From: Escherichia phage PO103-1
Strand: one strand, 5' to 3'
Length of the DNA stretch: 53,040 nucleotides
Sequence record: NC_079175.1
This document shows, in pieces, positions 4,267 through 52,679 of the stretch (the stretch's first letter is position 1; each line of letters opens with the position of its first letter). The notes below the pieces were generated by a model. It saw only the letters and a program-made list of their open reading frames with translations, ran no database searches and was not told where the DNA came from. A program made the translations under genes and the position numbers.

Positions 4267-4275
4267 TACATTACC

Positions 4276-5667: not shown

Positions 5668-6866
5668 TATCGTCTCGCAAGCATAGAGATTTGGTTAGCA
5701 GAAAGTCTTGGATATACCTCAAAGAATCTTAGAGCCATTACATTCTTATCTGCAAAGAGTTTGTTATCAATGTAGTCTTTCAGGTCAAGTCCGTCTGGAA
5801 AACTGAAAGAATCTTCATTAGAAGTTCGCATAACTACATCAACTTCATCGGTAGTAACTACAACAACCACAGTGGTCGGGATATTGAAGGTTGGTCCAAA
5901 GAACTTCAACCCATTGTTGGAGATGTTAAATCCGCCATACCAAAATTCTGGGGAAGCGGTTGTCTCAACAGTCCATAAACCAACAGACTCCGCATCATTA
6001 ATGTCTTCATGAAAGTCAGCACGAAGCATTGGCACAGGGAGTGCAAACTGGTTTCCATACTTAATGTTGAACTTGTTGTAGTTTGCTTCTGTGATTATTT
6101 CAAAAGCACCAGCGGAGTTGATGAACCACGCATGACCACTGCTGTCCACACCAATTGCAGTGGTTCCATTAACCAATTCGAATATGCCAGTCGAATCGTT
6201 TCGGTGCACATATTGTGAAACACCACCACCAGCATACGCTTCTTCGGTGAAAGTTATCGGTCCTGTGAAAGTACCGCCAGATGTTGGAAGTGTTCCAAGC
6301 TGTTCTGGAGTTACCCTGTGGACAGATGCGCCGGTTCTGGAGATGTGATATGGGATTGTTGTAACTCGTTCGTCGCTGGCGAATCTGTCGTACACATATT
6401 CTTGAAGGTATGTCCCATCAACAATTGTGTCTACAGTATCTTTATGAGGGTTCTGTTCTGCCATATGAGCATTGAACACATTCTTGAGATATTGAACCTT
6501 TTCATTAAACTTAATAAGGTTTGTCTCAAGAACCTCTTGCCAACCACTTCCGGAGGTTGGAGGACTTATATTGCCAGGAATCTCTTCCCGCTTCTGATAA
6601 ATCTTACCATCAACTATTGCAAAAGCGCCAAGCGAATATGTTACGGTATCACACCATTGCAATATCCCACCAACCAACATATCTCGAATCTTAACGTCAG
6701 TGATTTGAGTTAAGAAGTTCTGCCATTGTTCGGGAGGCTTTTCAGCTTCCCAGCCGACATTTTCGTATCGGTCTGGGATATAGGATGGTGCAGTCGTATC
6801 CAAATCGGGGTCAAGTGCTTCGCCATCCTGCGCCCAATATTCTGGGTAATTCAAACGATTTGTCAT
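5667..6866 (-). CDS. Tail fibre / baseplate-attached fibre protein
   Basis: 399 aa; NPHKDT...GGTFTGPITF motif shared with 4276..5667. Confidence 0.5.
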   Translation of the reverse strand: MTNRLNYPEYWAQDGEALDPDLDTTAPSYIPDRYENVGWEAEKPPEQWQNFLTQITDVKIRDMLVGGILQWCDTVTYSLGAFAIVDGKIYQKREEIPGNISPPTSGSGWQEVLETNLIKFNEKVQYLKNVFNAHMAEQNPHKDTVDTIVDGTYLQEYVYDRFASDERVTTIPYHISRTGASVHRVTPEQLGTLPTSGGTFTGPITFTEEAYAGGGVSQYVHRNDSTGIFELVNGTTAIGVDSSGHAWFINSAGAFEIITEANYNKFNIKYGNQFALPVPMLRADFHEDINDAESVGLWTVETTASPEFWYGGFNISNNGLKFFGPTFNIPTTVVVVVTTDEVDVVMRTSNEDSFSFPDGLDLKDYIDNKLFADKNVMALRFFEVYPRLSANQISMLARR

Positions 6867-7507
6867 CGGTTCTCCGGTGGATAAACTTTAGAAACATATG
6901 GGAGTTCAATAGCACCACCATTGTCCGAAAGAGTTATGGAGATGCCAACAGGCTTAAAGTCTGGAAGCATGTAAGCCAACAACACTTTCTCTGCAACTGA
7001 CAGTGTGTTATGAACTTGGTAATGTAGAGTCTGGAATCCTTCAATGATTTCAAGATTCAGGCTACGACCAAGAACAAGGTCCACATAAACAATCAGTTCT
7101 TCGATTGTGCAGCTTCCCACAACCTTGCGGATACGTGCACGTATTGCATCTTTAAGTTGAGTATCGGTACGAACAAAGTCACCAGAGTCCCGGTCACCAT
7201 CTGACTTCAAAATGCCACCAACGCCAGGATTATTGTCATCTCCGGCAGGGAATGCACTTGGGTCAGAATAGAAGCCGAAGTACCCAAGTGGTGCAGCACC
7301 ATAGATAGTACGGCTGGCACCAACGAGGTATGCAATATCATCAACCATAACGCCAAATGAATCGGCAAGGTATCGGTATTTAACAGACTCTTCTTGAGCA
7401 TTCTGGACGAGCTTTAACTCGTCCAAGAAAATCTGAATGTACGCCCGTAAGTTTGGAGAATCGCTATACTGCATTAGCAGCATATCTAAACCAGATTTAC
7501 CAGCCAT
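6863..7507 (-). CDS. Baseplate protein (P2 gpI-like position)
   Basis: 214 aa; follows the J-like gene in the P2/Mu gene order; assignment by synteny only. Confidence 0.35.
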   Translation of the reverse strand: MAGKSGLDMLLMQYSDSPNLRAYIQIFLDELKLVQNAQEESVKYRYLADSFGVMVDDIAYLVGASRTIYGAAPLGYFGFYSDPSAFPAGDDNNPGVGGILKSDGDRDSGDFVRTDTQLKDAIRARIRKVVGSCTIEELIVYVDLVLGRSLNLEIIEGFQTLHYQVHNTLSVAEKVLLAYMLPDFKPVGISITLSDNGGAIELPYVSKVYPPENR

Positions 7508-27245: not shown

Positions 27246-27767
27246 CTACTTGGTAATGCTGTGATTGTGGACTGTCAAGCCTTTTGGAATATGTGGTCTT
27301 TCGTGTTGACCAAGTTCCACACGACCAGTTGAGCCAAATCCACCTTCGCCACGACCAGTTGCATTCAAGAGGTCAACTTCAACGAAATGGTGTTGAGTAG
27401 CTTTACTAACTTGCACTTGACAAATACGTTCACCTGGCTGAACCACAAAGGCTGTGTCCGAGTCATTGTGCAACTTAACCATAAGATTGCCACGATAATC
27501 GGAGTCCAGAATTCCTGTGCAGTTTGCCAGGCGAATGCCAGACTTAAAGCCATGACCAGAACGGCTATATACTTTGAGTTCGTATCCAACTGGAACCTCG
27601 AACTGGAGGCCAGTATCGAAAACAGCAGAGCAGCCGGGATTGATAACAACAGTGCTATCGGAGATAGTGCAAACGTCAGCAGCAGCAGCGCCAACAGTAG
27701 CGTACACAGGTAATTTCGCATTAGGATGCACTCGCTTTACAGCAACAACTTGAGTCATACAAGACAT
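27246..27767 (-). CDS. dut: dUTPase
   Basis: Trimeric dUTPase motifs GILDSDYRGNL, GERICQ, RGEGGFGSTG. Confidence 0.8.
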   Translation of the reverse strand: MSCMTQVVAVKRVHPNAKLPVYATVGAAAADVCTISDSTVVINPGCSAVFDTGLQFEVPVGYELKVYSRSGHGFKSGIRLANCTGILDSDYRGNLMVKLHNDSDTAFVVQPGERICQVQVSKATQHHFVEVDLLNATGRGEGGFGSTGRVELGQHERPHIPKGLTVHNHSITK

Positions 27768-27769
27768 GA

Positions 27770-28396
27770 TTATTTCTCTACTTGATAAGTTACGCGTTCA
27801 ATCCAGTTGAACACTTTGAATACAGAATCACCCACTTTACCATCAACTAAATGTTCGTCCACTGTTACGCGGGTAGGTGTGTCTGGGAGGTTGATGTATC
27901 TGCGAGAATCGCCCGTGAAATCAAAACCATCACGATGCAAACGCACAATGAGGACAAAATCATAAGCAGACTCAATGGCAACGACTTCATCACCAAAACC
28001 GCCATCGGGATAAATGACATTAATAATGCCACCCATACGCCCCGCGAGTTCTTTAACACGAGCAGCTTCAACCTTACCGAAGTAGTCTTGTCCGTGGCGA
28101 GGTTTATACACATCTTCGCTAACGTGAATAAGAGCCTGACGAGGTGTTCTGCCACCAAGACCTGCAAGGGAGATAGAGTCTTTGAGGTCACGGTCCGAAG
28201 CGTAGTGAATAAACTTGTCCACATCAACTTGAAAGTGTTTGGCAGTATGCTCATACAGTGCATCCTTAAACTGGTGTTTAATGAACTTGCGCTTACCGAG
28301 AAAGTATGGTTCCTCGGCAGCAACAATCTTATTTGCGATGGTGTCTTTACCGCAGCCAGGAGGTCCATTGAGAATAACAGCTAATCGCTTAATCAA
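27770..28396 (-). CDS. Deoxynucleoside monophosphate kinase (P-loop)
   Basis: Walker A NGPPGCGKDT; likely TTG start at 28396 preceded by GAGG, avoiding overlap with the ligase. Confidence 0.55.
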   Translation of the reverse strand: MIKRLAVILNGPPGCGKDTIANKIVAAEEPYFLGKRKFIKHQFKDALYEHTAKHFQVDVDKFIHYASDRDLKDSISLAGLGGRTPRQALIHVSEDVYKPRHGQDYFGKVEAARVKELAGRMGGIINVIYPDGGFGDEVVAIESAYDFVLIVRLHRDGFDFTGDSRRYINLPDTPTRVTVDEHLVDGKVGDSVFKVFNWIERVTYQVEK

Positions 28397-29144
28397 AACT
28401 TTCCTCACTTTTGTCTGCACGTAAACGAACGAGTGACGGGAACCGGAACTTACCAGCTTCTGTCTTCTCACGATATCGAACTTGCATAATCGAACCAATT
28501 AGCTCGTGGCGATGTTCCCACAACCACTTACGAATCAATGTGTTAGATTCTGGAATACCGTGGTCTGCCAGACAATCCTTCACCATTGAACCAGCACTGC
28601 CATAGTTCGAGGAGATAGAACCACACATACCTTTAAGAGCACCAGTACCTTCTTTCATACCAGTAATCTTCACATCGGCGTATTTATATGGTACAATCTT
28701 CCACCACTTACCTTTTGCATCACGGACAATGATACCTTCATGACCAAGCGCCAGATATTTATCCATCAATGCCTTAAGGTTTTCATTGCTTGGGTCTTTG
28801 CACCAGCCGATGTACAGGCGTGGGTCAACAGCACCATCGCTCAACTCATACACATTGTCCTGGGTTAGAGGGATGCTTGGCGGGTCAATACGTCCGAGGA
28901 TGCTAGAAGTCTCATTCCAACTATTACGGAATATCTCAGCATCTCTGAACTGTAAGTGGTCCAAATGAGGTAGGGGTTTGGAATTACGACTCCAGACACT
29001 ACCTGATTTATTACGGATAGCTCGAATTCCGTCAATCTTGATGAAGAGTTCACAGCGCCCTTTGATACGGCAGTCTGGGTCTTCCCAATCATGTGCGTGA
29101 GCCTTTGTATATCTTGTACCATCATCGAGGAGCTTAATAGACAT
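28389..29144 (-). CDS. ATP-dependent DNA ligase (minimal)
   Basis: Nucleotidyltransferase motif I KIDGIRA; downstream DGAV, EGIIVRD, KWWKIVPYK resemble motifs III-V. Confidence 0.65.
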   Translation of the reverse strand: MSIKLLDDGTRYTKAHAHDWEDPDCRIKGRCELFIKIDGIRAIRNKSGSVWSRNSKPLPHLDHLQFRDAEIFRNSWNETSSILGRIDPPSIPLTQDNVYELSDGAVDPRLYIGWCKDPSNENLKALMDKYLALGHEGIIVRDAKGKWWKIVPYKYADVKITGMKEGTGALKGMCGSISSNYGSAGSMVKDCLADHGIPESNTLIRKWLWEHRHELIGSIMQVRYREKTEAGKFRFPSLVRLRADKSEESFD

Positions 29145-29658
29145 TAAGATTCTTTCTCAGGTATTCTCGAACAGCATTCTTGCGTCCGATTTTGGTTTTA
29201 GGAACTGGCTCTATTTTAGCAAGATTGCACTTGGCAATTTGCTCTTCGTCAGATAATTTGGCAAATGCAATACATTTCTTCTCAATGACTGCATCACGAC
29301 GTGATACACCATATCGTTCCATGTATGTAATAATGCCGTGACAATCTTTACACAGCAATTCCAAATCTTCTGGCTGAACCAGTAGAAGGTTGTCCACAAA
29401 GCGGTGTAGGTCTTCCAACTTAAGAAGGCCACCAACTTGAACTTTGTGGTTTACTTCAATATCTTTGAGCTTATACAACTTCTTGCAATGGTAGCATTGA
29501 ATGTGGAAGATTGGTTTCTTTGAGTCACCAACCTTCAATGCAATGCGTCGAGATTGTATCAGCGCAAGTTTGCTTGGGTGTTTAGACCAAACACTTCGAA
29601 TAGCAGATTGGAGCCAAGATACAAACTTGGCTTCCGTTCCACAATAACCGTAAGCCAT
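29134..29658 (-). CDS. HNH endonuclease
   Basis: CYHCKK...EVNHK...CKDCHG arrangement typical of HNH nucleases. Confidence 0.7.
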   Translation of the reverse strand: MAYGYCGTEAKFVSWLQSAIRSVWSKHPSKLALIQSRRIALKVGDSKKPIFHIQCYHCKKLYKLKDIEVNHKVQVGGLLKLEDLHRFVDNLLLVQPEDLELLCKDCHGIITYMERYGVSRRDAVIEKKCIAFAKLSDEEQIAKCNLAKIEPVPKTKIGRKNAVREYLRKNLNVY

Positions 29659-29669
29659 TCCAACTCCAA

Positions 29670-30707
29670 TTATTTCTGGAGGTACTCTTCTTGAGTGAGG
29701 ATACGATTCTCTTTAAGGTCAAAGTATTCGTTAATGTTCTTGTAATGCCACAAGCGAACACAATTACCTTTTTCAATTTGATGGTGCATGTAAACAAGGC
29801 GACCTACTTTGAGCAGCTCTTGTTCCCAACCATCTCCGAAGCGCACAATATATGCACCAATAACTTTCTTCAAACCTTCTGCATAGGAGGTTGTACCATC
29901 CAGCATTTCGAATGAAGCAACTGCACCAATGCCGTCACGACGGAAATAAGTTTCTCCGGCTTTGGCACCAGTTTTGTAAATTCTTTCTTCAAGAACTCCG
30001 CAACCCATAACGTTATCCGTTGAGTCGCCAATAAGCAATTGATGCAAGAAGAATTTAGGGCCATTGCCTTTAACTTCTTTCTTCTTCGACTTGCCGTTGT
30101 CCTTGATGATTAACTTGAGTTCGCCGTAATCCTGAGGAGTTACAATCTTCTCACCAATACCTTGGGTTTCTCGTTCCCATTGGTAATGTTTAATTACTGG
30201 ACCAGCACCACCATTCTGCCCGATTTGTCGCAAGTCTTTGTCCAGCGACGCAATCCAGACTTCATCATATGTGCAAGGACCAATGCGCTTGAGGCTCTTA
30301 ATCTCATTACGTTTACCCATTGTCATTTCGTATTCATGACGCGCGAATACAGCAAGAAGGTCATCTGCTTCCAGACCCTTCATCCATACACCGTTCCAGG
30401 CAACCATGAGATGTGCTTTCGCATTCTTCAAGTTTTCTGGTCGCCATACGTCATCACGGTTGCCTTTGTAATTCTCGGCAAGAACGTTACGGAATGTTTT
30501 GGATGGTGAAATGCAGGTGACTACTTCTGTAGCTCCCACACGTTTCGCAAGGAATTCCATCTTGGAATCCATTGACATTTGAATCTTAGCAAAGTTAATA
30601 TCTTCTGAATCTTTGCCGTATTCCTCAGCAGCACAGTGACTGAATGCAACCATGTCGCCGTCAACCAGCAACAAAACTCGTTTCTTACTCACTTTGGTAA
30701 GCTCCAA
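29670..30707 (-). CDS. 5'-3' exonuclease / flap endonuclease
   Basis: N-terminal LLLVDGDMVAFSHC acidic cluster typical of the FEN/5'-3' exonuclease family. Confidence 0.7.
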   Translation of the reverse strand: MELTKVSKKRVLLLVDGDMVAFSHCAAEEYGKDSEDINFAKIQMSMDSKMEFLAKRVGATEVVTCISPSKTFRNVLAENYKGNRDDVWRPENLKNAKAHLMVAWNGVWMKGLEADDLLAVFARHEYEMTMGKRNEIKSLKRIGPCTYDEVWIASLDKDLRQIGQNGGAGPVIKHYQWERETQGIGEKIVTPQDYGELKLIIKDNGKSKKKEVKGNGPKFFLHQLLIGDSTDNVMGCGVLEERIYKTGAKAGETYFRRDGIGAVASFEMLDGTTSYAEGLKKVIGAYIVRFGDGWEQELLKVGRLVYMHHQIEKGNCVRLWHYKNINEYFDLKENRILTQEEYLQK

Positions 30708-30740: not shown

Positions 30741-31607
30741 TTAGAACGGCATACCCGTACCGCTAGCAGCACCACCTTCCGCTTCACGCTGTGCTTTTGC
30801 AGCAGCCTGTGCTTCCAGTTCAGCTTTCATAGCTGCATCAACTTCTTCATCAGAAGCCTGATTCGGTACAGCGCCTTCATCGGCAGGTTTACCGCCTAAC
30901 AGTGCAGACAGCTTAGTCTTGTAGAAATCAACACCGGAAGTGATACGGTTCTTGATTGCATACGGAGATTCGCCACCTGGCAGTTTGTTGAATACTTCCA
31001 GGTCCGGCTCAGACATGTCGAAGAAGACAGTCGGGTTAACCAGAGCTTTAGCTTCTTTCTTCTCTTTAGACTTCATCGGAGAGAAGGTAGCAACTTTGTT
31101 AGCAACCTGACCAGCGTTCTTACCTGACTGCTTGGTATATTGAACAATGCCAACAATCAGAGGTTCGCCCAACCAGTCCGGCAGGTTCTTGGCAGGATGG
31201 CCCTGGATGCCTTGTTCCAGGTTAGGTTTAACTTCCAGTGCATCAATCGCCTTAGCGAATTTGTAGATGTGGGAGTTCTCACCCATGAAGCCGTCAGCAT
31301 TATAGGTAAACTCAAAGTCAAACCAACGCGGCTTGTCTTCAAGATTCTTCGCCATCATGATGCCGTCATCTTCGTCTGGGTCTTGGACCATGACCATTTT
31401 ACCTTCACTGTCAACTTCTTTCATGTACTCGTCGAGCAGTTCGAAAGTAACCAGAAGTTTCAGGGACGGAGTAGGATATTTAGCAGAACCAGGCTGTAAG
31501 CCCAGGTCGATAATACGGCAAACACGAGCAGGATAACCACCCGCTTCCAGTAATGGTGCAGCAGAAGGAGTCTTGTTCGAGGCCAGTGTAGGAGCAGCAA
31601 ATGCCAT
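30741..31607 (-). CDS. Hypothetical replication-module protein with C-terminal ...GMPF tail (possible ssDNA-binding protein)
   Basis: 288 aa adjacent to the DNA polymerase gene; Ala/Glu-rich C-terminus ending PF. Confidence 0.45.
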   Translation of the reverse strand: MAFAAPTLASNKTPSAAPLLEAGGYPARVCRIIDLGLQPGSAKYPTPSLKLLVTFELLDEYMKEVDSEGKMVMVQDPDEDDGIMMAKNLEDKPRWFDFEFTYNADGFMGENSHIYKFAKAIDALEVKPNLEQGIQGHPAKNLPDWLGEPLIVGIVQYTKQSGKNAGQVANKVATFSPMKSKEKKEAKALVNPTVFFDMSEPDLEVFNKLPGGESPYAIKNRITSGVDFYKTKLSALLGGKPADEGAVPNQASDEEVDAAMKAELEAQAAAKAQREAEGGAASGTGMPF

Positions 31608-31623: not shown

Positions 31624-31869
31624 TTACAGTTGAGTGATAACTAGGGAGAAGTCCAGGTCGTTCATACAAGAGATTAACTCTTGCTCATTGACGACAGGAC
31701 CAGATAAAGTTTTAATGAATGCCTGATACACTGAATTGGTAGCAGAATCACTTCCAAATAATGTTTCAGCATTCTCGGTAATTACAGACAGCACAGCTTC
31801 CCGTGCGTCTTCACCTTTCTTGACAAAATGGAAATGGTCCACTTTGTCGAATATAGATACAACAACCAT
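31624..31869 (-). CDS. Hypothetical protein
   Basis: 81-aa ORF. Confidence 0.4.
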   Translation of the reverse strand: MVVVSIFDKVDHFHFVKKGEDAREAVLSVITENAETLFGSDSATNSVYQAFIKTLSGPVVNEQELISCMNDLDFSLVITQL

Positions 31870-33851
31870 TAGTGAATCTCTGCGTAGTTATCGCCAAATT
31901 GTACATCACATGCACAATCACGATTGAGTTTAAGTTCTTTGTTGGTCCGGTCCATTGCTTCATTAAGCAAGTCCGTCCACAAATCACGGAAACCTTTCTT
32001 AACTTGGAGAATCAATTCATCATGGAATTGTCCAGACAGAAGCGGGTCACAGCCCCAACGTTCATTACAAATTGCAATGATGTTGTTACACCAGATATCA
32101 AACACATATGCACCAGTACCCTGACACAATGTGGAGAATCGGTCTTTCTCTGTACGCAACGAATACCAGAATTTGTTTACTGGATTCTGTTGCCACATCT
32201 GACCATCAACTGTGATAACTTTGGTGTTTGCAGCAATCTCTTTAATAGACCAGTTCAAATCCCAATATGCTTTGTGCAGTCGTGCAGCAGTAGTCTGGTC
32301 ACAGCCAGCAGAACGAGCTACAGTTGGCACACCAGCACCATACTGACAAGCATAGTTTGTGGTCTTAAACATTGGACGTTGTTTACACTTCTTAATCCCG
32401 TCCTTGTGGTCCTGAGATTCCTGTTCTGTAATAAATCCACCAATTACGCCGATTGCAAGGTGGGCATCATAGTCTGGTGCCAACTGCTTCTTAACGTATT
32501 CAGGGTCATACATCCACTGGAAGTGGTGTTTACAACGGTCTTCCAGTGAGCACAAGTCAGAGCCTAACTGTTCGTAGTCTTCACGCCACGCTTCCAGCAT
32601 TGAACGCAGTTCTTCACCGCCAAATACACGAATAGAAGGGAGGTTAACAAGTTCGCGATGTTTAAGGCGTAAAGTATTGGTAAGGCCACCGCATCGTGCA
32701 GTAAGGAACCCATCTTCATCGACGTCGCGAAGGAAGCCATTAACAACAGACAGACGGTGTTTATACACGCCCATCCCAATAAGATGTTGAATACCAGAGT
32801 CGGGGTTTCTTTCCGCCAGCTTATGCAAGCTCGGACATATTTCAGGATTGCCATCTTCATCCTTCACAGTGATTTGTGGAATCTGGCGAGTTTCACCTGT
32901 TTCCTTGTTACGGTCAAACTTAAAGGTTTCCGGTTCCCAGCCTAAGCTGAACAACCAGTCTTTAATTTGCACATGAGAGCCAGCGTTAGGATTCTTATAA
33001 CCTTTAAGAACCTTGATAGCCAGGTCTGGGTCTTTCCAGTCCAAACCGTTTGCATCACAAATAGCTTTCCATTTGATGCCAGCGGAAGACAATTGTCCGT
33101 TCAACTTGTGGCATTTAGCTGGACGGGTTTTGATAACATATTCTGGAATACGTGGCATTGATGCTTCCAATGCGTCCGTCTTCTCTTTAATCATTGGTTC
33201 CAGCTTGGCCTTAAATGCCAATGCCTTCTCAATGTTCAACTTCCAGCGAGTACGTTGTTGAATAACTTGTTGACGAGCTTTTGTCATCAGATATTCAACG
33301 AAGCGCTTAACTTCGCTAGGAGATTTATAAATCTTCAAGAGTTGAATGTATTGCTGTTCCCACAGCTTCAACTGAATCTTGCAGTCTTCCATCACACGAT
33401 GGTTGTACTCTTCTTGAGTTTGATTTTCCCAATCTTCAATGACTGGTTTTGGCACACCAAACTCTTCGCCGTAACCCTCTAAGCCATGCTTAACACGACG
33501 AGGTTGCAAATACCAGCTGATAAACAAAGTATCAATTAAGGTACATTTTGAAACGTCGTAACCAAGGAACCTTAGTGCTTCAAAGTCAAAGGTTGCGCCG
33601 TTGTGCATGATTAGTGTTGGGCCTGTATCCAGAAATGCCTGGATAGATTTTCTGTCGGTCCATTCTATTACAGTTTCTTCACGAGTCAGAACATCAATAT
33701 ATCCGATGTTGTGAAGACGTGGTGCAGCTTGCTTACGCATTTGCTCCAACAGGCCAGTTGTTTCAATGTCACTGGCATACATATTTTCCCAAGGATACAA
33801 CACAGTATGGCTCCAATGGATTGGTGAGGACCACGCTGGTGGGCGAACCAT
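31869..33851 (-). CDS. DNA polymerase, family A, with 3'-5' exonuclease
   Basis: Exo I DIETTGL; motif B-like K...FKTTNYACQYG; motif C-like QFHDELIL. Confidence 0.85.
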   Translation of the reverse strand: MVRPPAWSSPIHWSHTVLYPWENMYASDIETTGLLEQMRKQAAPRLHNIGYIDVLTREETVIEWTDRKSIQAFLDTGPTLIMHNGATFDFEALRFLGYDVSKCTLIDTLFISWYLQPRRVKHGLEGYGEEFGVPKPVIEDWENQTQEEYNHRVMEDCKIQLKLWEQQYIQLLKIYKSPSEVKRFVEYLMTKARQQVIQQRTRWKLNIEKALAFKAKLEPMIKEKTDALEASMPRIPEYVIKTRPAKCHKLNGQLSSAGIKWKAICDANGLDWKDPDLAIKVLKGYKNPNAGSHVQIKDWLFSLGWEPETFKFDRNKETGETRQIPQITVKDEDGNPEICPSLHKLAERNPDSGIQHLIGMGVYKHRLSVVNGFLRDVDEDGFLTARCGGLTNTLRLKHRELVNLPSIRVFGGEELRSMLEAWREDYEQLGSDLCSLEDRCKHHFQWMYDPEYVKKQLAPDYDAHLAIGVIGGFITEQESQDHKDGIKKCKQRPMFKTTNYACQYGAGVPTVARSAGCDQTTAARLHKAYWDLNWSIKEIAANTKVITVDGQMWQQNPVNKFWYSLRTEKDRFSTLCQGTGAYVFDIWCNNIIAICNERWGCDPLLSGQFHDELILQVKKGFRDLWTDLLNEAMDRTNKELKLNRDCACDVQFGDNYAEIH

Positions 33852-33868: not shown

Positions 33869-35632
33869 TTATTGATGTGGACCGTTCTTCTTGGTGAGTT
33901 GAACAATCTCTTTAGTTTCGAACAGAGAGTCATCCCAAGAACGTTGAATAATTCGACCAGATTCGGTGTCATAATACGTCTTGAAGCCTTCTGTTTTACC
34001 ACTCTTACGAGCTTTGATGGAACGAATAATAGAACAGTTTGGGTCAACTGCCTGGCTATTACGCTCAAAGCCGAACATACCATGAGAATATTTAGCAGCA
34101 GCACGGGAGCCAGTAAAGTCTGACTTCTTGATACGTCCACCATCCTCATGAGGTCGCTGACCTTTTGCCACAGGGTTAAGGTGCGACAGAATATTAACGT
34201 GGAACTGGTACTGGTCTGCTAACTTTGTAATGTCTGCATACAGCTTGCCCAGAAAGTCGTTCTTCTCTGACGCAGAAATCCCTTCCGATAAGTAGGTCAA
34301 GTTATCAAGGACAAACATATCAATGTCTGGTCCAATCTGACGAAGAATCGTCTTTAACCCATCCCAGGTTTCATAAGGGTCTTCTCCAGCTTGCTTGCGG
34401 TCCCAAATCTCCATGTTACGAAGCATCTTCGAAGCAGTTTGGCGGAACTTGGCTTCATCATATCGAGGGTCTTCACGAGTAAACGCAGGTTCCCAATATG
34501 GCAAGTTGTCATTAAGGCCAGCCATTCGGCGCAGTGTTTCTGTAGGAGTTTCCTCCATGTATGCGGTAAACACTCCCCAATCGTGCTTGGTAATGTTGTG
34601 ATGCACAATCTGACGGGACAAGGTAGTTTTACCACCACCTTCTGCACCACCGATTGTAATAACTTCGGCTCGACGTTGACCAAACATTAAGTCGGTTAAC
34701 TTGGGCCAAGGATAATCCACACCCTGTTCAACCTCGTCATCAAGCTCCTCCATAAGAAGTTCTTTGTTGACAAGTGCTGTAGGAAGAGGACGAGCAGCAC
34801 GGAATACAACAGCAGATTGAGTAGCTTTAAGCAAGCCACGCTTCAAACAATCGTTGGCATCGTTAGCTGGAAGTGTTGCAATCATCGCACCAGGCAACAA
34901 TCGACACGCTTCTTTTGCAGCTTTACGTCCAGGTTCATCATCATCAAATACGATAACAACCTGCTCCCAACGTTGCTTAATTTCTTCTGCAACTGGTGAC
35001 AAACATTTGTGTACGGAATCACTCCCGTCACTCAAACTAATTACAGCAAAATCCAAATCTTCATATGCACCACCACGGTTCATAGTTTTGAGGATTTGAC
35101 GCAATGCGATACAGTCTTCTTCACCTTCTGTGATGAACAGTGTCTTACCGCCAATTGCTTTTGCAGCCATCCAGTTGTAAGGGTCGTTACCCTGGGTGTC
35201 GCCAACTGACCACATTACTTTCTTGTTCAGAAGTTTAATCTTCCAACGAACAAGTTTACCATTTTTGGTGTAGCCATGTGCCAGAGCATTTGGAGTCTTC
35301 CCATCATACTCTGAATACAGAAGTCGAACACCAGCAGCTTTCCAGAATTCTGGTTCGATGCTGCGATGGGTTAAATCAAACGGAGGACAAGCAGTGATTT
35401 CATCAACTTCTTCCTGAATTTCTTCTGGAGTTTTGACTTTAATCTCTGGAATGTTCTCCGGGTTATTGCCATAAGGATTTGGTACTAGAACGCCACACGC
35501 AAAGCAGTAACCAGAGAAGTTCTTATTACCAGCTTCATCGACATTCAACCAAACCTGTAAAGACTTGCCAGATGTGGATTTACAGTCTGGTACATCGTGC
35601 TTAATCTTAGCCACACATTGCTTGACGTTCAT
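33869..35632 (-). CDS. Primase-helicase (Toprim plus DnaB/RecA-like ATPase)
   Basis: N-terminal Cys cluster, Toprim-like EGEEDCIAL and VIVFDDDEPG, Walker A GGAEGGGKTT. Confidence 0.75.
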   Translation of the reverse strand: MNVKQCVAKIKHDVPDCKSTSGKSLQVWLNVDEAGNKNFSGYCFACGVLVPNPYGNNPENIPEIKVKTPEEIQEEVDEITACPPFDLTHRSIEPEFWKAAGVRLLYSEYDGKTPNALAHGYTKNGKLVRWKIKLLNKKVMWSVGDTQGNDPYNWMAAKAIGGKTLFITEGEEDCIALRQILKTMNRGGAYEDLDFAVISLSDGSDSVHKCLSPVAEEIKQRWEQVVIVFDDDEPGRKAAKEACRLLPGAMIATLPANDANDCLKRGLLKATQSAVVFRAARPLPTALVNKELLMEELDDEVEQGVDYPWPKLTDLMFGQRRAEVITIGGAEGGGKTTLSRQIVHHNITKHDWGVFTAYMEETPTETLRRMAGLNDNLPYWEPAFTREDPRYDEAKFRQTASKMLRNMEIWDRKQAGEDPYETWDGLKTILRQIGPDIDMFVLDNLTYLSEGISASEKNDFLGKLYADITKLADQYQFHVNILSHLNPVAKGQRPHEDGGRIKKSDFTGSRAAAKYSHGMFGFERNSQAVDPNCSIIRSIKARKSGKTEGFKTYYDTESGRIIQRSWDDSLFETKEIVQLTKKNGPHQ

Positions 35633-35636
35633 TTAT

Positions 35637-36287
35637 TTATTCCTGGTTGGTCAGAGCCTTCCAACAAATTGGGAACAGTTCTGACATGATTTTATTCACT
35701 TCTTCCGCAAACAAGCGAACTTCATATTGCGCATGTTCGGAGGAACGTTGATTATACATAGATGCCCAGCCATAAAGTGAGCCAGTCCAAATCCATTCAG
35801 TCATCATGGATTGTGGAAGAACCATGCGAGCTTGCTCTGGTGCAATCCCCAAACCAATTAACGTTTCATACTCTGCGATGCAAGCCTTGTTATGGCTTTC
35901 CATGCGATAATGAATATCGTCAGCAAAATCTTGTGGCAACGGTTGTGCAGTCTGAGTCATCAACTTTTCAGGACGACCAAATACAACATCTGGTACAAAG
36001 CATTCAATCGAGATTGCTTCACCATCTTTGTAACGACGGCTAACCTCATTCCAACTAAAGCCAGTTTGATGTTTGCCAAGCTGACGTGCAATGAAGATTG
36101 GAGCTTTGCAACGCAATGTTACCTGTGCGTGGCGAAACGGCGTAATGTGTTTATGCTTTGCAAGAAACTCAATCAGCTTCTCGTCACGTAAAGATATTTC
36201 ATGCGACTCTGCACCATAAGAAACTCGTGCAGCATTAACAGTTGTAAGGTCGCTGCCCATGTGGTCAACGAGTGTTGCAGTAATCAT
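35637..36287 (-). CDS. thyX: Flavin-dependent thymidylate synthase
   Basis: RHAQVT...SWNEVSRRY resembles the ThyX signature; ATG with GGAG upstream. Confidence 0.8.
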   Translation of the reverse strand: MITATLVDHMGSDLTTVNAARVSYGAESHEISLRDEKLIEFLAKHKHITPFRHAQVTLRCKAPIFIARQLGKHQTGFSWNEVSRRYKDGEAISIECFVPDVVFGRPEKLMTQTAQPLPQDFADDIHYRMESHNKACIAEYETLIGLGIAPEQARMVLPQSMMTEWIWTGSLYGWASMYNQRSSEHAQYEVRLFAEEVNKIMSELFPICWKALTNQE

Positions 36288-39017: not shown

Positions 39018-39356
39018 TTAGAATACCGGAGCTTCTTCAACAGCAGCTTCGGCAGCTTCGGCAACACTTGCGTCAGCAACTTTAGCTTCTTTCGGAGTAT
39101 CGAACTTAGTACGCTCAACTTCCGGCTCACCAGCTTCAACCCACGGCAGGTAGAATGCCAGGAACTGCTCGATGGTGTTCTTCTGCATGGAGCGAGAACG
39201 GTCGATAGCGCCAACGGTGTTCAGGTACGCTTCGGCAGCTTTCTCAATTTTAGCACCGTTTTCCAGTTTGAAGTCATGTGCATTACACTCTGCTTCGGTC
39301 AGGAACAGGGAACCATCGTTAGCTTCGTACTGAGTTACGGTTACAATCTTAGCCAT
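39018..39356 (-). CDS. Hypothetical early protein with acidic C-terminus ...EEAPVF
   Basis: 112-aa ORF, first gene after the GC-rich non-coding block. Confidence 0.5.
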   Translation of the reverse strand: MAKIVTVTQYEANDGSLFLTEAECNAHDFKLENGAKIEKAAEAYLNTVGAIDRSRSMQKNTIEQFLAFYLPWVEAGEPEVERTKFDTPKEAKVADASVAEAAEAAVEEAPVF

Positions 39357-40154: not shown

Positions 40155-40481
40155 TTAGTGGCCTTGTAGGATACGTTTGTTCGCAGTTTCTGCGTCGATT
40201 CCCAAATCAACTAATGTCACCAAGCACTGCGAAATCCGCTCTTGCGCAGCTTTCTCCAGAATTTGGTATTTTTCGTTGTCAATGCCTAACACATTCTTGG
40301 CATGAATGAGTGTAGCCATTAGACCATGACCCAAAGCAACAGCTTGCATTGCCCGGAGTTCAAAGTTAATTGTGATGCCAGCGAGTTCGTGCTCTTTCTG
40401 GATAATCTCAATCAACTCTTCTTTAGATTTGTCCTGTAAGTTCAAAATGGAACTCCGTAAATCGGTTGGTTTGTTGTCCAA
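40155..40481 (-). CDS. Hypothetical protein
   Basis: 108-aa ORF. Confidence 0.45.
   Translation of the reverse strand: MDNKPTDLRSSILNLQDKSKEELIEIIQKEHELAGITINFELRAMQAVALGHGLMATLIHAKNVLGIDNEKYQILEKAAQERISQCLVTLVDLGIDAETANKRILQGH
40207..40220 (-). promoter_or_regulatory. Early-region conserved motif copy (variant)
   Basis: gtgACATTAGTTGAt about 50 nt upstream of the 39479..40153 start. Confidence 0.3.
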
Positions 40482-40762
40482 TTGCGAGTTGCGATTTGCA
40501 TGGACTTGTTTGGGCCGTAGTAGAAATATTTCTTAACTTCGGCAAGGGTGTAGTTGGCACTGCTTTCAAGCAACTCCTTAAAGGTGTGCTTCCAGAATCC
40601 ATCTTTCTCCGACAGACTTACGTGGAAAGAATTAGTGCCGTTATAATACCAACGCCCACCAACGAGAACGAAGTGGATTGTTTCTTCCTCTCCTTCCCCA
40701 CTTGAAGGGAACATTAGTACATTTCTCAACGTCAAAACTTTAGCAGAATGCTTGCGAACCAT
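40442..40762 (-). CDS. Hypothetical protein
   Basis: 106-aa ORF. Confidence 0.45.
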   Translation of the reverse strand: MVRKHSAKVLTLRNVLMFPSSGEGEEETIHFVLVGGRWYYNGTNSFHVSLSEKDGFWKHTFKELLESSANYTLAEVKKYFYYGPNKSMQIATRNWTTNQPIYGVPF

Positions 40763-44321: not shown

Positions 44322-45224
44322 TTACAGCTTCTTGATAAGCTCTGCGGATTTGTTTGCGGCAGCTTTCATTTCATCGCGCGCGGCTTTAGAGATTGATGCC
44401 TTGTCCACGCGAATATTACAGTTACCAACTGCAATCTTGCCATCTTCTGTTGGCGGAAGCTGAGTTAACTCCAACATTTGCTCCAGCTTTTGCAGAAGAA
44501 TGCGTTGTGCTTCGATTGCATTTTGAATATTTAATGTTTCCATTACTGCTCTTACCTTTCTTGAGAATGTTCCAGTTAATGCCAGCCGTACTTGTAAACC
44601 TTTAATGTTTCCATAGTCTACATTCACTTTATTGGCTGGCGAATGTGGATGTTTGTACACGTTTGTTACAGTTGCCCAATTTCCATTTACCCAAATAACA
44701 TCGCCAACTTCTACATCTTTTCCGAGAACATCTTCTTCATCGGATATTTCCTGCTTCTTGAACTCCTCCACAGGAAGGAATATTGGATTTATTTGGTTTG
44801 GGAACTCAATTGTTGGTGAGTTTGCCATTGGGCCTGGGTTAACAACGTAGACAACCCTACTCTTCACAAAGTCGAAGTACCCTTTCGAGTGATGCAGTCG
44901 AACATCTGAACCATAATCTTCTACGCGAGTAATGTAGAAGAAGTTTACACCATAGCTAAGTGTTTCACCTGCTACAACCATCCCAGCTTTGACTGGAGTA
45001 ACCTTTGGCGCATTTTCATGCTTATCGACAATTTCCACAATCTTGTATGCGTCCAAGTTGAAATATCCTCCATTATATTGCAGTTGTACAATGTTGGCAA
45101 AATGGAGTATCCTTTCTATTAGGTACTCTTTGCAATCGTGCAGGTATATATCACCTTTCGATACCAAATTTACCGGAATTTTGATAGCCTTAGTTCCCAC
45201 GATATTCCTCACGCATTGCTGCAC
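44322..45224 (-). CDS. Hypothetical protein
   Basis: 300-aa ORF followed by a strong hairpin. Confidence 0.45.
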   Translation of the reverse strand: MQQCVRNIVGTKAIKIPVNLVSKGDIYLHDCKEYLIERILHFANIVQLQYNGGYFNLDAYKIVEIVDKHENAPKVTPVKAGMVVAGETLSYGVNFFYITRVEDYGSDVRLHHSKGYFDFVKSRVVYVVNPGPMANSPTIEFPNQINPIFLPVEEFKKQEISDEEDVLGKDVEVGDVIWVNGNWATVTNVYKHPHSPANKVNVDYGNIKGLQVRLALTGTFSRKVRAVMETLNIQNAIEAQRILLQKLEQMLELTQLPPTEDGKIAVGNCNIRVDKASISKAARDEMKAAANKSAELIKKL

Positions 45225-45321: not shown

Positions 45322-45696
45322 TTAGAACGGAATGTCGTCGTCGAAGTCTTTCGGCTCGTTCGGGTTATAATTGCTCTGCTGCTGTTGTTGAGTAGGAGCT
45401 TGCTGTTGCGCAGAAGGTTGCTGGCGTTGCTGTTGCTGTTGAGCGGCAGCTTGAGGTTGAGCTTTGGCTTTAGCTTTCTCTTCACGCTTACGCATCATTT
45501 CATCAACCTGTTCTTGGGTCATGATGGTTAATGCAAGTGAGGTAAACTCATTACCATTTGCTTGCTTATTCCAGCCAGATACCCAATACCAGATTCCGTC
45601 AACGTTAATACGTCCACGAATGTCGGGATGTTTTGGGTCTTTCTTGAAGCCGTTAGGACCGATAATGCCAGTGTTTACATCTGAATATTGTGCCAT
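45322..45696 (-). CDS. Small protein carrying an SSB-like C-terminal tail
   Basis: Gln-rich linker then NEPKDFDDDIPF, nearly identical to the E. coli SSB C-terminal tip as I recall it; N-terminal domain too short for a full OB fold. Confidence 0.55.
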   Translation of the reverse strand: MAQYSDVNTGIIGPNGFKKDPKHPDIRGRINVDGIWYWVSGWNKQANGNEFTSLALTIMTQEQVDEMMRKREEKAKAKAQPQAAAQQQQQRQQPSAQQQAPTQQQQQSNYNPNEPKDFDDDIPF

Positions 45697-45825: not shown

Positions 45826-46137
45826 TCAACGTTGTTTCTTGGCCCACTCTATTGCAGCCATTATCGTATCGCCGTGGCAGCGAGCTGGGGCACACCAACA
45901 AACTAAATCTTTGCCATCCAATGCTAGCAAATCATCTATTGTTACTTCACCAGATTTAATTTGTTTCCACAAATGCTTGCGATACTCTTCGCACACATAG
46001 TCTCTTTGGCTTTCATTAAACATTTTAAAAGGATTGTGGAATTTCTTGTTTCCAGCAATACCCTTCATATCTCGACCTATATATACTGCGTTGTTGTGAA
46101 CACCTTTAACTTTCGAATAGTTCAGAACTCTTGCCAT
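45826..46137 (-). CDS. DUF4326-like protein
   Basis: VYIGR...NPF and LVCWCAPARCHGD motifs; start MARVLNY at 46137 with GGAG upstream. Confidence 0.5.
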   Translation of the reverse strand: MARVLNYSKVKGVHNNAVYIGRDMKGIAGNKKFHNPFKMFNESQRDYVCEEYRKHLWKQIKSGEVTIDDLLALDGKDLVCWCAPARCHGDTIMAAIEWAKKQR

Positions 46138-46162
46138 CTTTATTCTCCAATTATTATTCACA

Positions 46163-46184
46163 ATCAACTAATGTTAGATTAATC
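46163..46184 (-). promoter_or_regulatory. Early-region motif copy, extended GATTAATC subfamily
   Basis: gattaatctaACATTAGTTGAt about 30 nt upstream of the DUF4326-like gene. Confidence 0.35.
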
Positions 46185-50495: not shown

Positions 50496-50732
50496 TCAGA
50501 ACGGTATCTCTGTATCAAAGAATCCAGAATTGTGCAAATATGCGTGCAATAATACATGCGATTCTTGCTTATATTCTGCTAACAATTCTAAGAAGTCTTT
50601 AGTCTCCTCCACTGTAGGACGAGATAAATTGTTCATGTCACAGGTGTGATGAGGATTGAAACAGTTTTCGATTTGATTGATTTGCATGGTATTCATTGTA
50701 GTCTCCAAGTAGTTGTGGTCATCCTTGACCAA
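50496..50732 (-). CDS. Hypothetical small early protein with C-terminal ...DTEIPF tail
   Basis: 78-aa ORF immediately downstream of the RNA polymerase gene. Confidence 0.4.
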   Translation of the reverse strand: MVKDDHNYLETTMNTMQINQIENCFNPHHTCDMNNLSRPTVEETKDFLELLAEYKQESHVLLHAYLHNSGFFDTEIPF

Positions 50733-50738
50733 TTAATA

Positions 50739-52679
50739 TTATTGACAGAAGTAGTAAGCGTGTTCGCTCATCAGAAGCTCTTCGGTTACGATGTTCTCAT
50801 GATACATCTGAATGCCACCAAGTTGCTTAGACAGATTCTCGAATTGATTGTTGGTTACAAAGATTTCAACATATGCTGCACGAATAACTTCCATCATACG
50901 TGGAGCATCTGCCAAACAGCAACGGAAACAATCATGGATTGAAGTGAAGCCACGAAGACCAGCTTCTTTAGCTTTAACTGCAACAGTACGAGCAACAAGT
51001 GCATCAATACCTTGAATGTAGTTAACAACGAAAGTACGCTTGAATTCTTCTTTAGTTGGATTGGATTCACGAATGGTCCAAGGCTTATTCTCCTGAATCT
51101 GACCAAAGATAACACGAGTTTGGCTGTCAACACGAATGCTGAATGCCTCACAGATTTCACGAGATGGGAAGCAAGGCTTCATTACAACCTGACCATCAGT
51201 GTGACGGTATGTGATGTACTCTTTACCAAGTTCAACACAACGGTTGTATGCAGCATCAGCAGCTTTCTCAATGAACATGTTAATCTTAGCACCCAATGCG
51301 TTATGGATTGCTTCCACACACAGTTCAGCAAATGCCTCAGCTTTCTCCATAGGAATCTGGAGAGCTTCTGTCATGTAGCTAATGAAGTCAGATGAACCAG
51401 TTAATGCAGCTTTACCACCACCGTATTGAATGGCCATGTAAGGAGTTTTGATAAACTTACGACCAGCTTTCGGATTCAAGAATTCATCCATGATTTCAGC
51501 AGATGGTTTCATTGAAGAACGGTCGAGTAACTTCAACAGCTCACGAAGACTCAACTGGTATGGGTCAGATGCTTTAGTCTCAGAATCAACCAGACCTGTT
51601 GCACGAGCCATTTCCATGTTACCAGCAATGAATGCCAGATATTGAGTACCAGAACATTTAGCATCTAATCCAAAGCCTACACGAGAATCGCATTCACCTG
51701 TAGTCTCAAACTTGAACCAATCCAGAGCCAGACGAACATAAGTGAATGGCTTAGAAGGACGTTCAGCTTTAGGCATGTTCATCATGCGAGCAAGTGAACC
51801 AGCTGGATTCTGAGCAACATAAGTTAAACGCTTAGCACTGCACCATTCACCACCAGAAATATCTTCCAGCTCTGCCATGAACATGTTGTATGCAATGGTA
51901 GTAGAACCATCTTCGTTAAACTTCTTAACGATGTTCTCAACATTGTGAGAATACAAGCAACGAGCAAAGTCAGAGGATTGTGGGTTAGGACCAGCACATG
52001 CTACATGATACAGGCGACCACGGTTATCAGCAAAGTAGTCAGAATACAGTGTGTCCTGATTCATCATTGCTACAGCATTGTTCCAAACATGGAGTTCAGT
52101 CTGGATTGCTTCTGGCATCTGCAAGCCACCGTAGGTACGTTGTTCAAGCATGGACTGGATGATGCGAACCATCTCAGTCTCCACATGGTACTCAGTATCT
52201 TGCAGGAATTCGATTGCAGCTTTCAGAGTCTTGGATGGCTTAACTTTGCCACCTTTAACGAAAGGCTTGCGACGAGATTCAGATGTAACACGCTCAGTGA
52301 ATGGCACTGCGGTGTCTTTGGTTGTAACCAGTTCAACCCATGTGTCAGTCTGTTGGAATGACTTGTCTTCGTTCATGGTTATGAAGCCAAAGTGCTTAGC
52401 CAGACCAATGAGGTTGATAGCTGGGTCAACATAGTGCATTGCTTTCAAATCGTTGTTGTAGCGGTTGGCATCAGCAATAGAAGCAGAAGCCAGCTCAACC
52501 ATCGCAATGGCAGGAACAACGTCGTCACGTGTGAAAGACGTCATCATCTTGAATATGGCTAAGGCAGCAATAGCACAAGTCTGAGGCTGCATATAGTTCT
52601 GCTTCTCTTTGGCACGGTATACCAGAGCAGTGATAGCAGGAACAACAGATTTGATAGTTTGAGTGGTGATAGTAGTCAT
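50739..52679 (-). CDS. Single-subunit DNA-dependent RNA polymerase (T7-like, compact)
   Basis: 646 aa; GLDAKCSGTQYLAFIAG, RKFIKTPYMAIQYGGG and SIHDCF parallel T7 RNAP DGSCSGIQHFSAML, RSVTKRSVMTLAYGS and HDSFGT; GGAG 8 nt upstream of ATG. Confidence 0.85.
   Translation of the reverse strand: MTTITTQTIKSVVPAITALVYRAKEKQNYMQPQTCAIAALAIFKMMTSFTRDDVVPAIAMVELASASIADANRYNNDLKAMHYVDPAINLIGLAKHFGFITMNEDKSFQQTDTWVELVTTKDTAVPFTERVTSESRRKPFVKGGKVKPSKTLKAAIEFLQDTEYHVETEMVRIIQSMLEQRTYGGLQMPEAIQTELHVWNNAVAMMNQDTLYSDYFADNRGRLYHVACAGPNPQSSDFARCLYSHNVENIVKKFNEDGSTTIAYNMFMAELEDISGGEWCSAKRLTYVAQNPAGSLARMMNMPKAERPSKPFTYVRLALDWFKFETTGECDSRVGFGLDAKCSGTQYLAFIAGNMEMARATGLVDSETKASDPYQLSLRELLKLLDRSSMKPSAEIMDEFLNPKAGRKFIKTPYMAIQYGGGKAALTGSSDFISYMTEALQIPMEKAEAFAELCVEAIHNALGAKINMFIEKAADAAYNRCVELGKEYITYRHTDGQVVMKPCFPSREICEAFSIRVDSQTRVIFGQIQENKPWTIRESNPTKEEFKRTFVVNYIQGIDALVARTVAVKAKEAGLRGFTSIHDCFRCCLADAPRMMEVIRAAYVEIFVTNNQFENLSKQLGGIQMYHENIVTEELLMSEHAYYFCQ

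Follow-up and report, generated by a model that had tools for sequence, protein, structure and literature searches.

Escherichia phage PO103-1 (NC_079175.1) encodes a 124-residue protein that carries the C-terminal tip of the host's SSB, the protein that binds single-stranded DNA, on a small N-terminal domain. We analysed the whole 53,040-nt stretch of this phage, hereafter the window, which contains about 88 genes. With slightly better than even confidence, we regard the protein as a real, non-canonical mini-SSB whose host-identical tip links phage single-stranded DNA (ssDNA) to proteins, from the host, the phage or both, that bind SSB tails. The open reading frame (ORF), the identity of the tip, the family-wide architecture, the pattern of conservation and the gene neighbourhood are established here. 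The layout and the tip are those of classic SSBs; for its presumed DNA-binding module, the protein has a small domain that is widespread and uncharacterised.

According to the ORF list and its translation, the gene lies on the minus strand where the preliminary description had placed it, with an ATG start codon at 45696 and the stop codon at 45322–45324. The translated protein terminates in QQQQSNYNPNEPKDFDDDIPF, and E. coli SSB, as represented in PDB entries 1eqq and 7f2n, terminates in ...SNEPPMDFDDDIPF. The final eight residues, DFDDDIPF, are the same in the two proteins, and 'NEP' stands before them in both. Both phmmer and the family profile placed the phage tail exactly on the C-terminal segment of the 1eqq and 7f2n chains, bearing out the resemblance that the preliminary description had pointed to. 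In the phage protein, KDFDDDIPF directly precedes the stop codon, such that the tip has a free C-terminus. At the residue frequencies of this proteome, a given C-terminus would read DFDDDIPF by chance with a probability of 4e-11, or about 4e-9 over all genes of the window. The motif D[DES][DE][ILVM]PF occurred once across all six reading frames, at this tip. Against host and plasmid ssb genes, the DNA match was confined to the last 27–34 nt (E ∼0.1). Recent acquisition of the tail from host ssb was therefore rejected: the DNA match is only what coding for the same eight residues gives. The identity of the tip is upheld at the protein level and is old within the family.

To describe the anatomy of the protein, we used an AlphaFold model with an alignment of 24 sequences as input. 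The model has strands at residues 9–14, 26–32, 35–46 and 49–60, with a predicted local distance difference test (pLDDT) score of ∼91 in this N-terminal domain (model numbering is protein numbering minus 1: E8–13, E25–31, E34–45, E48–59 and H60–87). The conserved residues of the domain include N15, K18, H23-P24-D25, G28-R29, G34, W36-Y37-W38, G41-W42, F51 and S53-L54. Among 24 close relatives, the invariant residues include H23-P24-D25, G28-R29, W36-Y37-W38, G41-W42 and F51-x-S53-L54-A55. The conserved aromatic and basic residues are located on the predicted β strands. A predicted amphipathic helix follows at residues 61–88 (TQEQVDEMMRKREEKAKAKA...); it is kept in Chaseviridae-like members and missing from many short family members, in which strand 4 leads straight to the linker. 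The linker, residues 89–112, contains Gln at 12 of its 24 positions, and the pLDDT is below 50 over model residues 91–114. An N-terminal domain of about 60 residues and a Gln-rich linker had both been described previously, and both are upheld: the structured part comprises ∼60 residues of β strand, then the helix. In the 24 close relatives, the Gln/Pro-rich linker drifts between the invariant N-terminal part and an almost invariant tip, in which F118, D119, I122, P123 and F124 do not vary (pattern F-D-x-x-I-P-F).

The same architecture recurs in a large family. A profile of the N-terminal domain alone, searched against 1.84 billion cluster representatives, returned 1,909 representatives at E ≤1e-3, most of them 70–170 residues long; 107 passed the stricter limit of E ≤1e-10. 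Members have in common a β domain of ∼55 residues, then a linker that is hypervariable and lastly an acidic ...IPF tip of the SSB type; linker and tip together span 20–108 residues. In an alignment of 41 sequences that includes distant members, pairwise identity was 0.58 in the tip, 0.43 in the N-terminal domain, 0.12 in the helix region and 0.08 in the linker. Conservation within the family is thus strongest at the tip. A PF ending was present in 96 of the 148 best cluster representatives (65%), mostly as acidic ...[DE]IPF. By class, 60 of the 148 have a strict SSB-type tip ([DEN]x[DE][ILVM]PF), 36 have another PF ending (mostly ...IPF), 9 have an acidic tail that closes in an aromatic residue and 5 have a tip followed by a short extension; the remaining 38 have no tip, and several of these resemble truncated metagenomic ORFs. 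Two or three tandem copies of the domain occur in about 17 of the top 149 representatives, as in the 158-residue member of Vibrio phage VP2, where two domains precede ...NEPPMDFDDDIPF. The tandem copies suggest a dimeric functional unit. Ten copies found in bacterial genomes and metagenome-assembled genomes (MAGs) all have an acidic aromatic tip. As to whether the tip follows the host, which would speak for host targets, the cultured hosts of family phages are all Proteobacteria, which have one common SSB tip. A narrower genome scan gave 10 loci, mostly MAGs, with tips alike; the broad alignment was too diverse for such a scan. One metagenomic sequence, P0158 (1,158 residues, 21 domain stretches), was dropped as a family member: it consists of about 21 near-identical repeats, each weakly matching the central part of the N-domain profile, and probably stems from faulty assembly or from translation of a tandem DNA repeat.

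In some members the tip is internal. Variants include ...DIPF-APIGLQEGRRYLHCI, ...DDDLPF-APEFR, ...DDDIPF-SAEFR and ...GDDIPF-APRSSKLPI, and the extension often starts with AP. The carriers are P0012, P0015 and P0023, which are close relatives, P0225, P0303, P0304 and a Cupriavidus phytorum locus (3001–3156). Docking of the SSB C-terminal tip (SSB-Ct) requires the free carboxylate of the terminal Phe, and internal tips would therefore be masked. Readthrough was considered as the origin of these variants and set aside, as the frame downstream of the gene in the window does not encode such an extension.

The 124-residue protein is not a canonical SSB, in that no oligonucleotide/oligosaccharide-binding (OB) domain of the PF00436 type is predicted in it. 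Pfam, including PF00436, gave no match to the protein or to its N-terminal domain even at E ≤10, and none of 41 diverse family members matched PF00436 at E ≤0.01. A profile search of all PDB sequences reached SSBs through the tail only. The predicted model has four strands and then a helix, as compared with the five-strand OB barrel. These results bear on the proposal that the protein is a highly divergent canonical OB-fold SSB, that is, a homologue of bacterial SSB with a shrunken N-terminal domain. The SSB-like layout of domain, disordered linker and acidic tip is what this proposal would expect, as is the SSB label in databases, and one segment of the N-terminal domain faintly resembles, in sequence, the B subunit of Shiga toxin, which has an OB fold (E ∼0.35–0.8). 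Apart from this segment and the tail, no PDB chain showed sequence homology. Set against the missing PF00436 homology, the tail-only matches in the PDB and the lack of a five-strand barrel in the model, these points leave it very unlikely. The preliminary description had named a simply divergent, functional SSB as the outcome contrary to its own proposal. Our results come near to that outcome, except that the DNA-binding domain is a different, uncharacterised one.

We compared the protein with known systems. Like the bacterial, plasmid and phage OB-fold SSBs (PF00436; E. coli, F-plasmid and P1), it has a putative DNA-binding domain, a disordered linker of the Gly/Gln/Pro-rich kind and an acidic IPF tip. 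Unlike them, its module has ∼60 rather than ∼115 residues, with no PF00436 homology and no predicted OB barrel. The strand-strand-strand-strand-helix order of PC4-like ssDNA binders (human PC4, L. lactis YdbC/DUF2128, Pur-alpha and the T5 homologue 4bg7; PMC7549692) is found in the model predicted from the 24-sequence alignment. By contrast with the PC4-like proteins, there is no sequence match to PF02229 or DUF2128 (no Pfam match at E ≤10), and the helix, with an identity of 0.12, is not conserved in the family. Finally, DUF736 (PF05284), also small, shows a pattern like that of the N-terminal domain (...PD..G...G...W.....G...S[LV]). It was matched weakly by two of the 41 family members (E ∼1e-3), and a viral DUF736 protein appeared at Foldseek rank 36; DUF736 did not match the 124-residue protein, and the gathering score was not reached. 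We found no known function or structure for DUF736, so this link adds no mechanism.

Database labels agree with an SSB assignment. The profile phrog_7364, named 'single strand DNA binding protein', matched residues 1–91 of the 124-residue protein (E = 3.4e-42), and phrog_18154, of the same name, matched residues 3–124 (E = 1.8e-18). This family name is an annotation and the function an assigned one. Orthologues are labelled SSB in ST32, phiEcoM-GJ1 and other phages, and the copy in phage Ecp_YSF is 100% identical. The ST32 record for the orthologue carries the remark 'no experimental evidence', and the gene functions of ST32 came from BLASTp (PMC6266442).

In other lineages, the family gene is part of replication loci. 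It lies directly beside a family A DNA polymerase gene in six other phages of five lineages: Vibrio VP2 (28861–29337 of the retrieved locus), Acinetobacter vB_AbaSI_2 (6992–7294), Klebsiella VLCpiS6a (4992–5318), Providencia Kokobel2 (4986–5363), Burkholderia BCSR129 (2578–2907) and Salmonella PMBT28 (4501–4842). A PurZ-type adenylosuccinate synthetase is encoded at most one gene away in VLCpiS6a, Kokobel2, BCSR129 and PMBT28, and the vB_AbaSI_2 record names its polymerase DpoZ. The genes purZ and dpoZ are markers of 2-aminoadenine (Z) genomes; the small-SSB family may belong to the regular replication module of phages with such genomes. In vB_AbaSI_2, the one genome of the six that was listed in full, the family member is the sole annotated SSB. 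Searches of VP2 and vB_AbaSI_2 with tblastn found no homologue of a 288-residue OB-fold candidate described below or of the E. coli-type OB domain, within the limited sensitivity of such searches and with a manually entered E. coli query. The PMBT28 member has 113 residues, lies between dpoZ and purZ and also ends in ...NEPPMDFDDDIPF. When the helicase and 'ssb' genes of PMBT28 were added to the genes for deoxy-Z (dZ), the dZ content of plasmid in E. coli rose from ∼40% to ∼50–53% (PMC12944874; bioRxiv 10.1101/2025.10.22.683976); the six-gene strain was slow-growing (PMC12944874).

The window phage also encodes a second candidate SSB, an unannotated protein of 288 residues whose gene lies between those of the family A polymerase and the 5'-3' exonuclease. 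Its relatives are all labelled hypothetical; in this family a conserved body is followed by a variable tail that always closes in an aromatic residue (PF, PY, PW or W). The model of the 288-residue protein (pLDDT 86) has a predicted OB-fold with a flexible tail, and its lower-ranking matches include LEF-3, RPA70, Teb1, Rim1, Thermus SSB and PriB. Compared with PrgE of plasmid pCF10 (PMC11137577), it has 13% sequence identity, additional domains and an extended tail that closes in PF. Pfam and PDB sequence searches with the 288-residue family gave no match, so membership of the gp2.5 family is putative. The T7 gp2.5-type SSBs and the SSB of HK620 bind partners through an acidic tail with a terminal Phe, which is the tail type of the 124-residue protein. 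In HK620, SSB stimulates Sak4, and its final six residues, NDYPPF, are required for Sak4 loading (PMC5928155). These SSBs are OB-fold proteins of 150–230 residues, and a gp2.5-like role suits the 288-residue protein better than the 124-residue one. The former is a candidate gp2.5-type replicative SSB of the T7-like module.

Further Phe-terminated tails occur in the window. The preliminary description had listed related tails at 30741–31607, 39018–39356 and 50496–50732, which encode proteins of 288, 112 and probably 66 residues. The coordinates are right, all three genes are on the minus strand, and Phe-ended tails do recur and are largely conserved. A true SSB tip is present only on the 124-residue protein, and the end of the 288-residue tail is not acidic. 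We compared the tails with those of Faunus, PM1 and Myduc, which represent three genera. DFDDDIPF of the 124-residue protein is retained in all three, as is the ...PF of the 288-residue protein. The acidic tail and terminal Phe of the 112-residue protein are likewise retained: with orthologue endings ...EQPAF, ...EQPMF and ...GEAIF, these two features are kept across four Chaseviridae genera and the other tail residues vary. The 112-residue protein has no sequence relatives among solved structures.

The third of these proteins probably starts at the ATG at 50696 within the ORF 50496–50732, giving 66 residues. It is not found in the three genera, and its homologues in Sabourvirus 4HA13 and in the N4-like phages G7C and St11Ph5 and Klebsiella phage P19-618 retain T62, P65 and F66 (T-x-x-P-F). 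The N4-like homologues are full-length, are encoded at the extreme left end of the genome and end in ...ETGCPF; in G7C (gp1.2, locus 301–516) and St11Ph5, the gene is directly upstream of that for RNAP1 subunit A. A small PF-tailed protein thus adjoins RNA polymerase genes in two unrelated phage families. A 106-residue protein with the tail ...YGVPF had been missed earlier. This tail is not conserved, and we treated it as probably incidental: the sole orthologue found, in Faunus, lacks it.

These tails bring into play the possibility that the tip of the 124-residue protein targets the phage's own T7-like replisome (family A polymerase and primase-helicase), its resemblance to the host tip reflecting shared chemistry. 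In that case the 124-, 288- and 112-residue proteins would share a single docking site, by competition or by hand-off. In T7, the tails of gp2.5 and gp4 act on gp5/thioredoxin. The window phage has the T7-like replication module that this possibility calls for (primase-helicase, PolA, 5'-3' exonuclease and ligase), three of its proteins keep Phe-ended tails across Chaseviridae genera, and the small gene adjoins a polymerase gene in other lineages. PF C-termini are also enriched, with 4 among the genes of the window against 0.11 expected (Poisson P = 5.5e-6). Nevertheless, shared chemistry needs no exact match of 8–13 residues to the host tail, and members in enterobacterial phages reproduce the ending seen in VP2 and PMBT28. 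The 288- and 112-residue tails are very different except for the last residue or residues, such that one common site is not obvious. Moreover, the helicase and polymerase of the phage lack acidic Phe tails, as do its exonuclease, ligase and RNA polymerase. We therefore consider a purely phage-internal target doubtful.

The mini-SSB reading is favoured by the host-identical tip, the architecture kept across a large family, the adjacency to DNA polymerase genes, the tandem domain copies and the conserved aromatic and basic residues on predicted strands, with the PMBT28 co-expression as an indirect functional hint. Several observations weigh against it. The N-terminal domain is near charge-neutral, with six K+R and five D+E residues. 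We found no published ssDNA-binding data for any family member, and the 'SSB' label, which traces to BLAST matches (VP2 record note; PMC6266442), probably rests on the tail. As for the PMBT28 experiment, gene contiguity leads us to infer that the 'ssb' of the construct is the family gene beside dpoZ, and this ssb was used only in combination with helicase and dpoZ, never alone. In Chaseviridae, the gene for the 124-residue protein lies ∼10 kb from the replication module, among early genes of the host-takeover type, and the module already includes an OB-fold SSB candidate. Because of the latter, the part of main replicative SSB in Chaseviridae need not fall to the 124-residue protein, which could have a specialised, non-replicative role.

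The presence of the 288-residue candidate likewise keeps alive the reading of the 124-residue protein as a decoy. The tip of an abundant early protein, with no need to bind ssDNA, would vie with that of host SSB for partners such as ExoI, RecQ, PriA, Ung and the chi subunit; host replication restart and repair would be shut down, or SSB-dependent nucleases and defences blinded, and the N-terminal domain would only oligomerise for avidity. This is consistent with the position of the gene, which lies among the early genes that separate the RNA polymerase gene from the replication module and has an anti-restriction gene nearby. It is also consistent with an identity to the host tail that runs past the minimal hexapeptide and with an N-terminal domain that has no recognisable DNA-binding fold. 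It sits poorly with the adjacency to DNA polymerase in six phages of five lineages, in one of which, vB_AbaSI_2, no other SSB is annotated. Conservation of the N-terminal domain is, moreover, strong, and the domain has the aromatic and basic residues that are usual in the binding of nucleic acids. In the PMBT28 system, co-expression aided replication by the phage polymerase rather than harming it, though the six-gene strain grew slowly. Overall, we regard the decoy as unlikely, if the least so of the alternatives. The preliminary description had proposed that the phage mimics SSB to recruit or sequester its partners. Mimicry is borne out insofar as the tail is that of host SSB; sequestration is not favoured, in view of the large, old family, the polymerase adjacency elsewhere and the PMBT28 construct.

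The least likely reading is that the protein is a transcription cofactor, namely an ssDNA-binding activator that acts on host RNA polymerase or on the single-subunit enzyme of the phage. The SSB of N4 is an analogue for an ssDNA-binding transcription activator. A second analogue is the Drc protein of N4-like phages (PMC7145618). The phage does encode its own RNA polymerase, the gene is in the early region, and phages are known to have small transcription factors that bind ssDNA without an OB fold. However, the other lineages examined link the gene to DNA polymerase and nucleotide-metabolism genes rather than to RNA polymerase, an SSB-Ct tip is characteristic of hubs in replication and repair, and no structural match to Drc was found.

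We propose the following mechanism for the mini-SSB. The four-strand β domain of ∼60 residues, through K18, R27/R29, W36-Y37-W38, W42, K44 and F51, would bind ssDNA, probably as a dimer or higher oligomer. The disordered Gln-rich linker would expose the tip DFDDDIPF, which is the same as the host SSB-Ct. The partners of the SSB tail in E. coli include ExoI, RecQ, PriA, the chi subunit, Ung, RNase HI and DnaG. On phage ssDNA arising from early replication or recombination, the tip would occupy the pockets for host SSB on its presumed partners among genome-maintenance proteins, and it may also dock onto phage replisome proteins. Phage DNA would thereby enter the SSB interaction network with no need of a complete tetramer of OB folds. 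The protein probably works beside the 288-residue OB-fold protein with its gp2.5-like tail.

A variant of these ideas, about as doubtful as the phage-internal target, is a minimal 'SSB-tip adaptor', in which a domain of new fold tethers a host-identical SSB-Ct to phage DNA or proteins and so hijacks or jams the host SSB network. In such a scheme, the conserved Phe-ended tails of the 124-, 66-, 112- and 288-residue early proteins would compete for shared docking pockets, and the 'IPF-AP...' variants would be masked, switchable tips.

The window phage is a myovirus of the Chaseviridae, in the ST32/phiEcoM-GJ1 group (Carltongylesvirus and relatives). Every gene is on the minus strand; the gene for the T7-like RNA polymerase comes first, followed by a series of small early genes and then by the T7-like replication module (Table 1). 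Homologues of phrog_20048 directly follow the small SSB gene in Faunus (4911–5384) and PM1 (6729–7157) as well. The small SSB gene and the phrog_20048 C-terminal domain are thus a conserved gene pair, and the 300-residue neighbour is a possible functional partner of the small SSB; Pfam and PDB searches with it gave no match. On the other side, a DUF4326 gene is found upstream of the small SSB gene in PM1 too, and Faunus has a 'DprA-like recombination mediator' at this position (3835–4353). Among the PHROG profiles that the DUF4326 domain also matches are those of larger families, called 'DNA repair protein' and 'NrdA-like'. No sigma-70 promoters or intrinsic terminators were found flanking the gene for the 124-residue protein. 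ARAGORN detected no tRNA genes in the window, and a tRNA-Arg is mentioned for the ST32 phage group in the ST32 paper (PMC6266442).

Table 1. Coordinates of the small SSB-like gene, its parts and the other features of the window discussed in the text.
Feature	Coordinates	Strand	Remarks
T7-like RNA polymerase	50739–52679	minus	
66-residue early protein, tail ...DTEIPF	50496–50696	minus	phrog_20790; just downstream of RNA polymerase gene
113-residue DUF4326 protein	45826–46167	minus	directly upstream of the 124-residue protein gene; PF14216, E = 9e-22; phrog_464
Small SSB-like protein, 124 residues	45322–45696	minus	ORF list and translation; PHROG 7364; orthologues labelled SSB
N-terminal β domain, residues 1–60	45517–45696	minus	AlphaFold model; invariant columns of alignments
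Predicted amphipathic helix, residues 61–88	45433–45516	minus	model; subfamily-specific
Gln/Pro-rich intrinsically disordered linker, residues 89–112	45361–45432	minus	composition, pLDDT
C-terminal tip NEPKDFDDDIPF, residues 113–124	45325–45360	minus	aligned to PDB SSB sequences 7f2n and 1eqq; last eight residues at 45325–45348
300-residue protein	44322–45224	minus	directly downstream of the 124-residue protein gene; phrog_20048, E = 1e-57, C-terminal domain (residues ∼161–300)
106-residue protein, tail ...YGVPF	40442–40762	minus	no PHROG match
112-residue protein, tail ...VEEAPVF	39018–39356	minus	phrog_17419 (unknown function); translation
ThyX	35637–36287	minus	replication module
Primase-helicase	33869–35632	minus	replication module
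Family A polymerase (PolA)	31869–33851	minus	replication module
288-residue protein, tail ...GMPF	30741–31607	minus	unannotated
5'-3' exonuclease	29670–30707	minus	replication module
Ligase	28389–29144	minus	replication module
dUTPase	27246–27767	minus	replication module

For the window phage, the analysis identifies a probable true OB-fold SSB, the 288-residue protein, which is called 'hypothetical' in all current annotations. More generally, many 'SSB' labels in phages rest on a tail match alone, and one characterised member of the small-SSB family would correct or confirm much annotation. The bacterial SSB interaction hub has already been studied as an antibacterial target (PMC5872125), and an exact host tip on a minimal scaffold would be a natural tool to probe or block that hub. 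The fold of the ∼55-residue domain has so far been assigned to no structural family, and the domain occurs in at least about 1,900 protein clusters, including those in the replication modules of dpoZ/purZ phages. If it truly binds ssDNA, it would be among the smallest SSB modules known.

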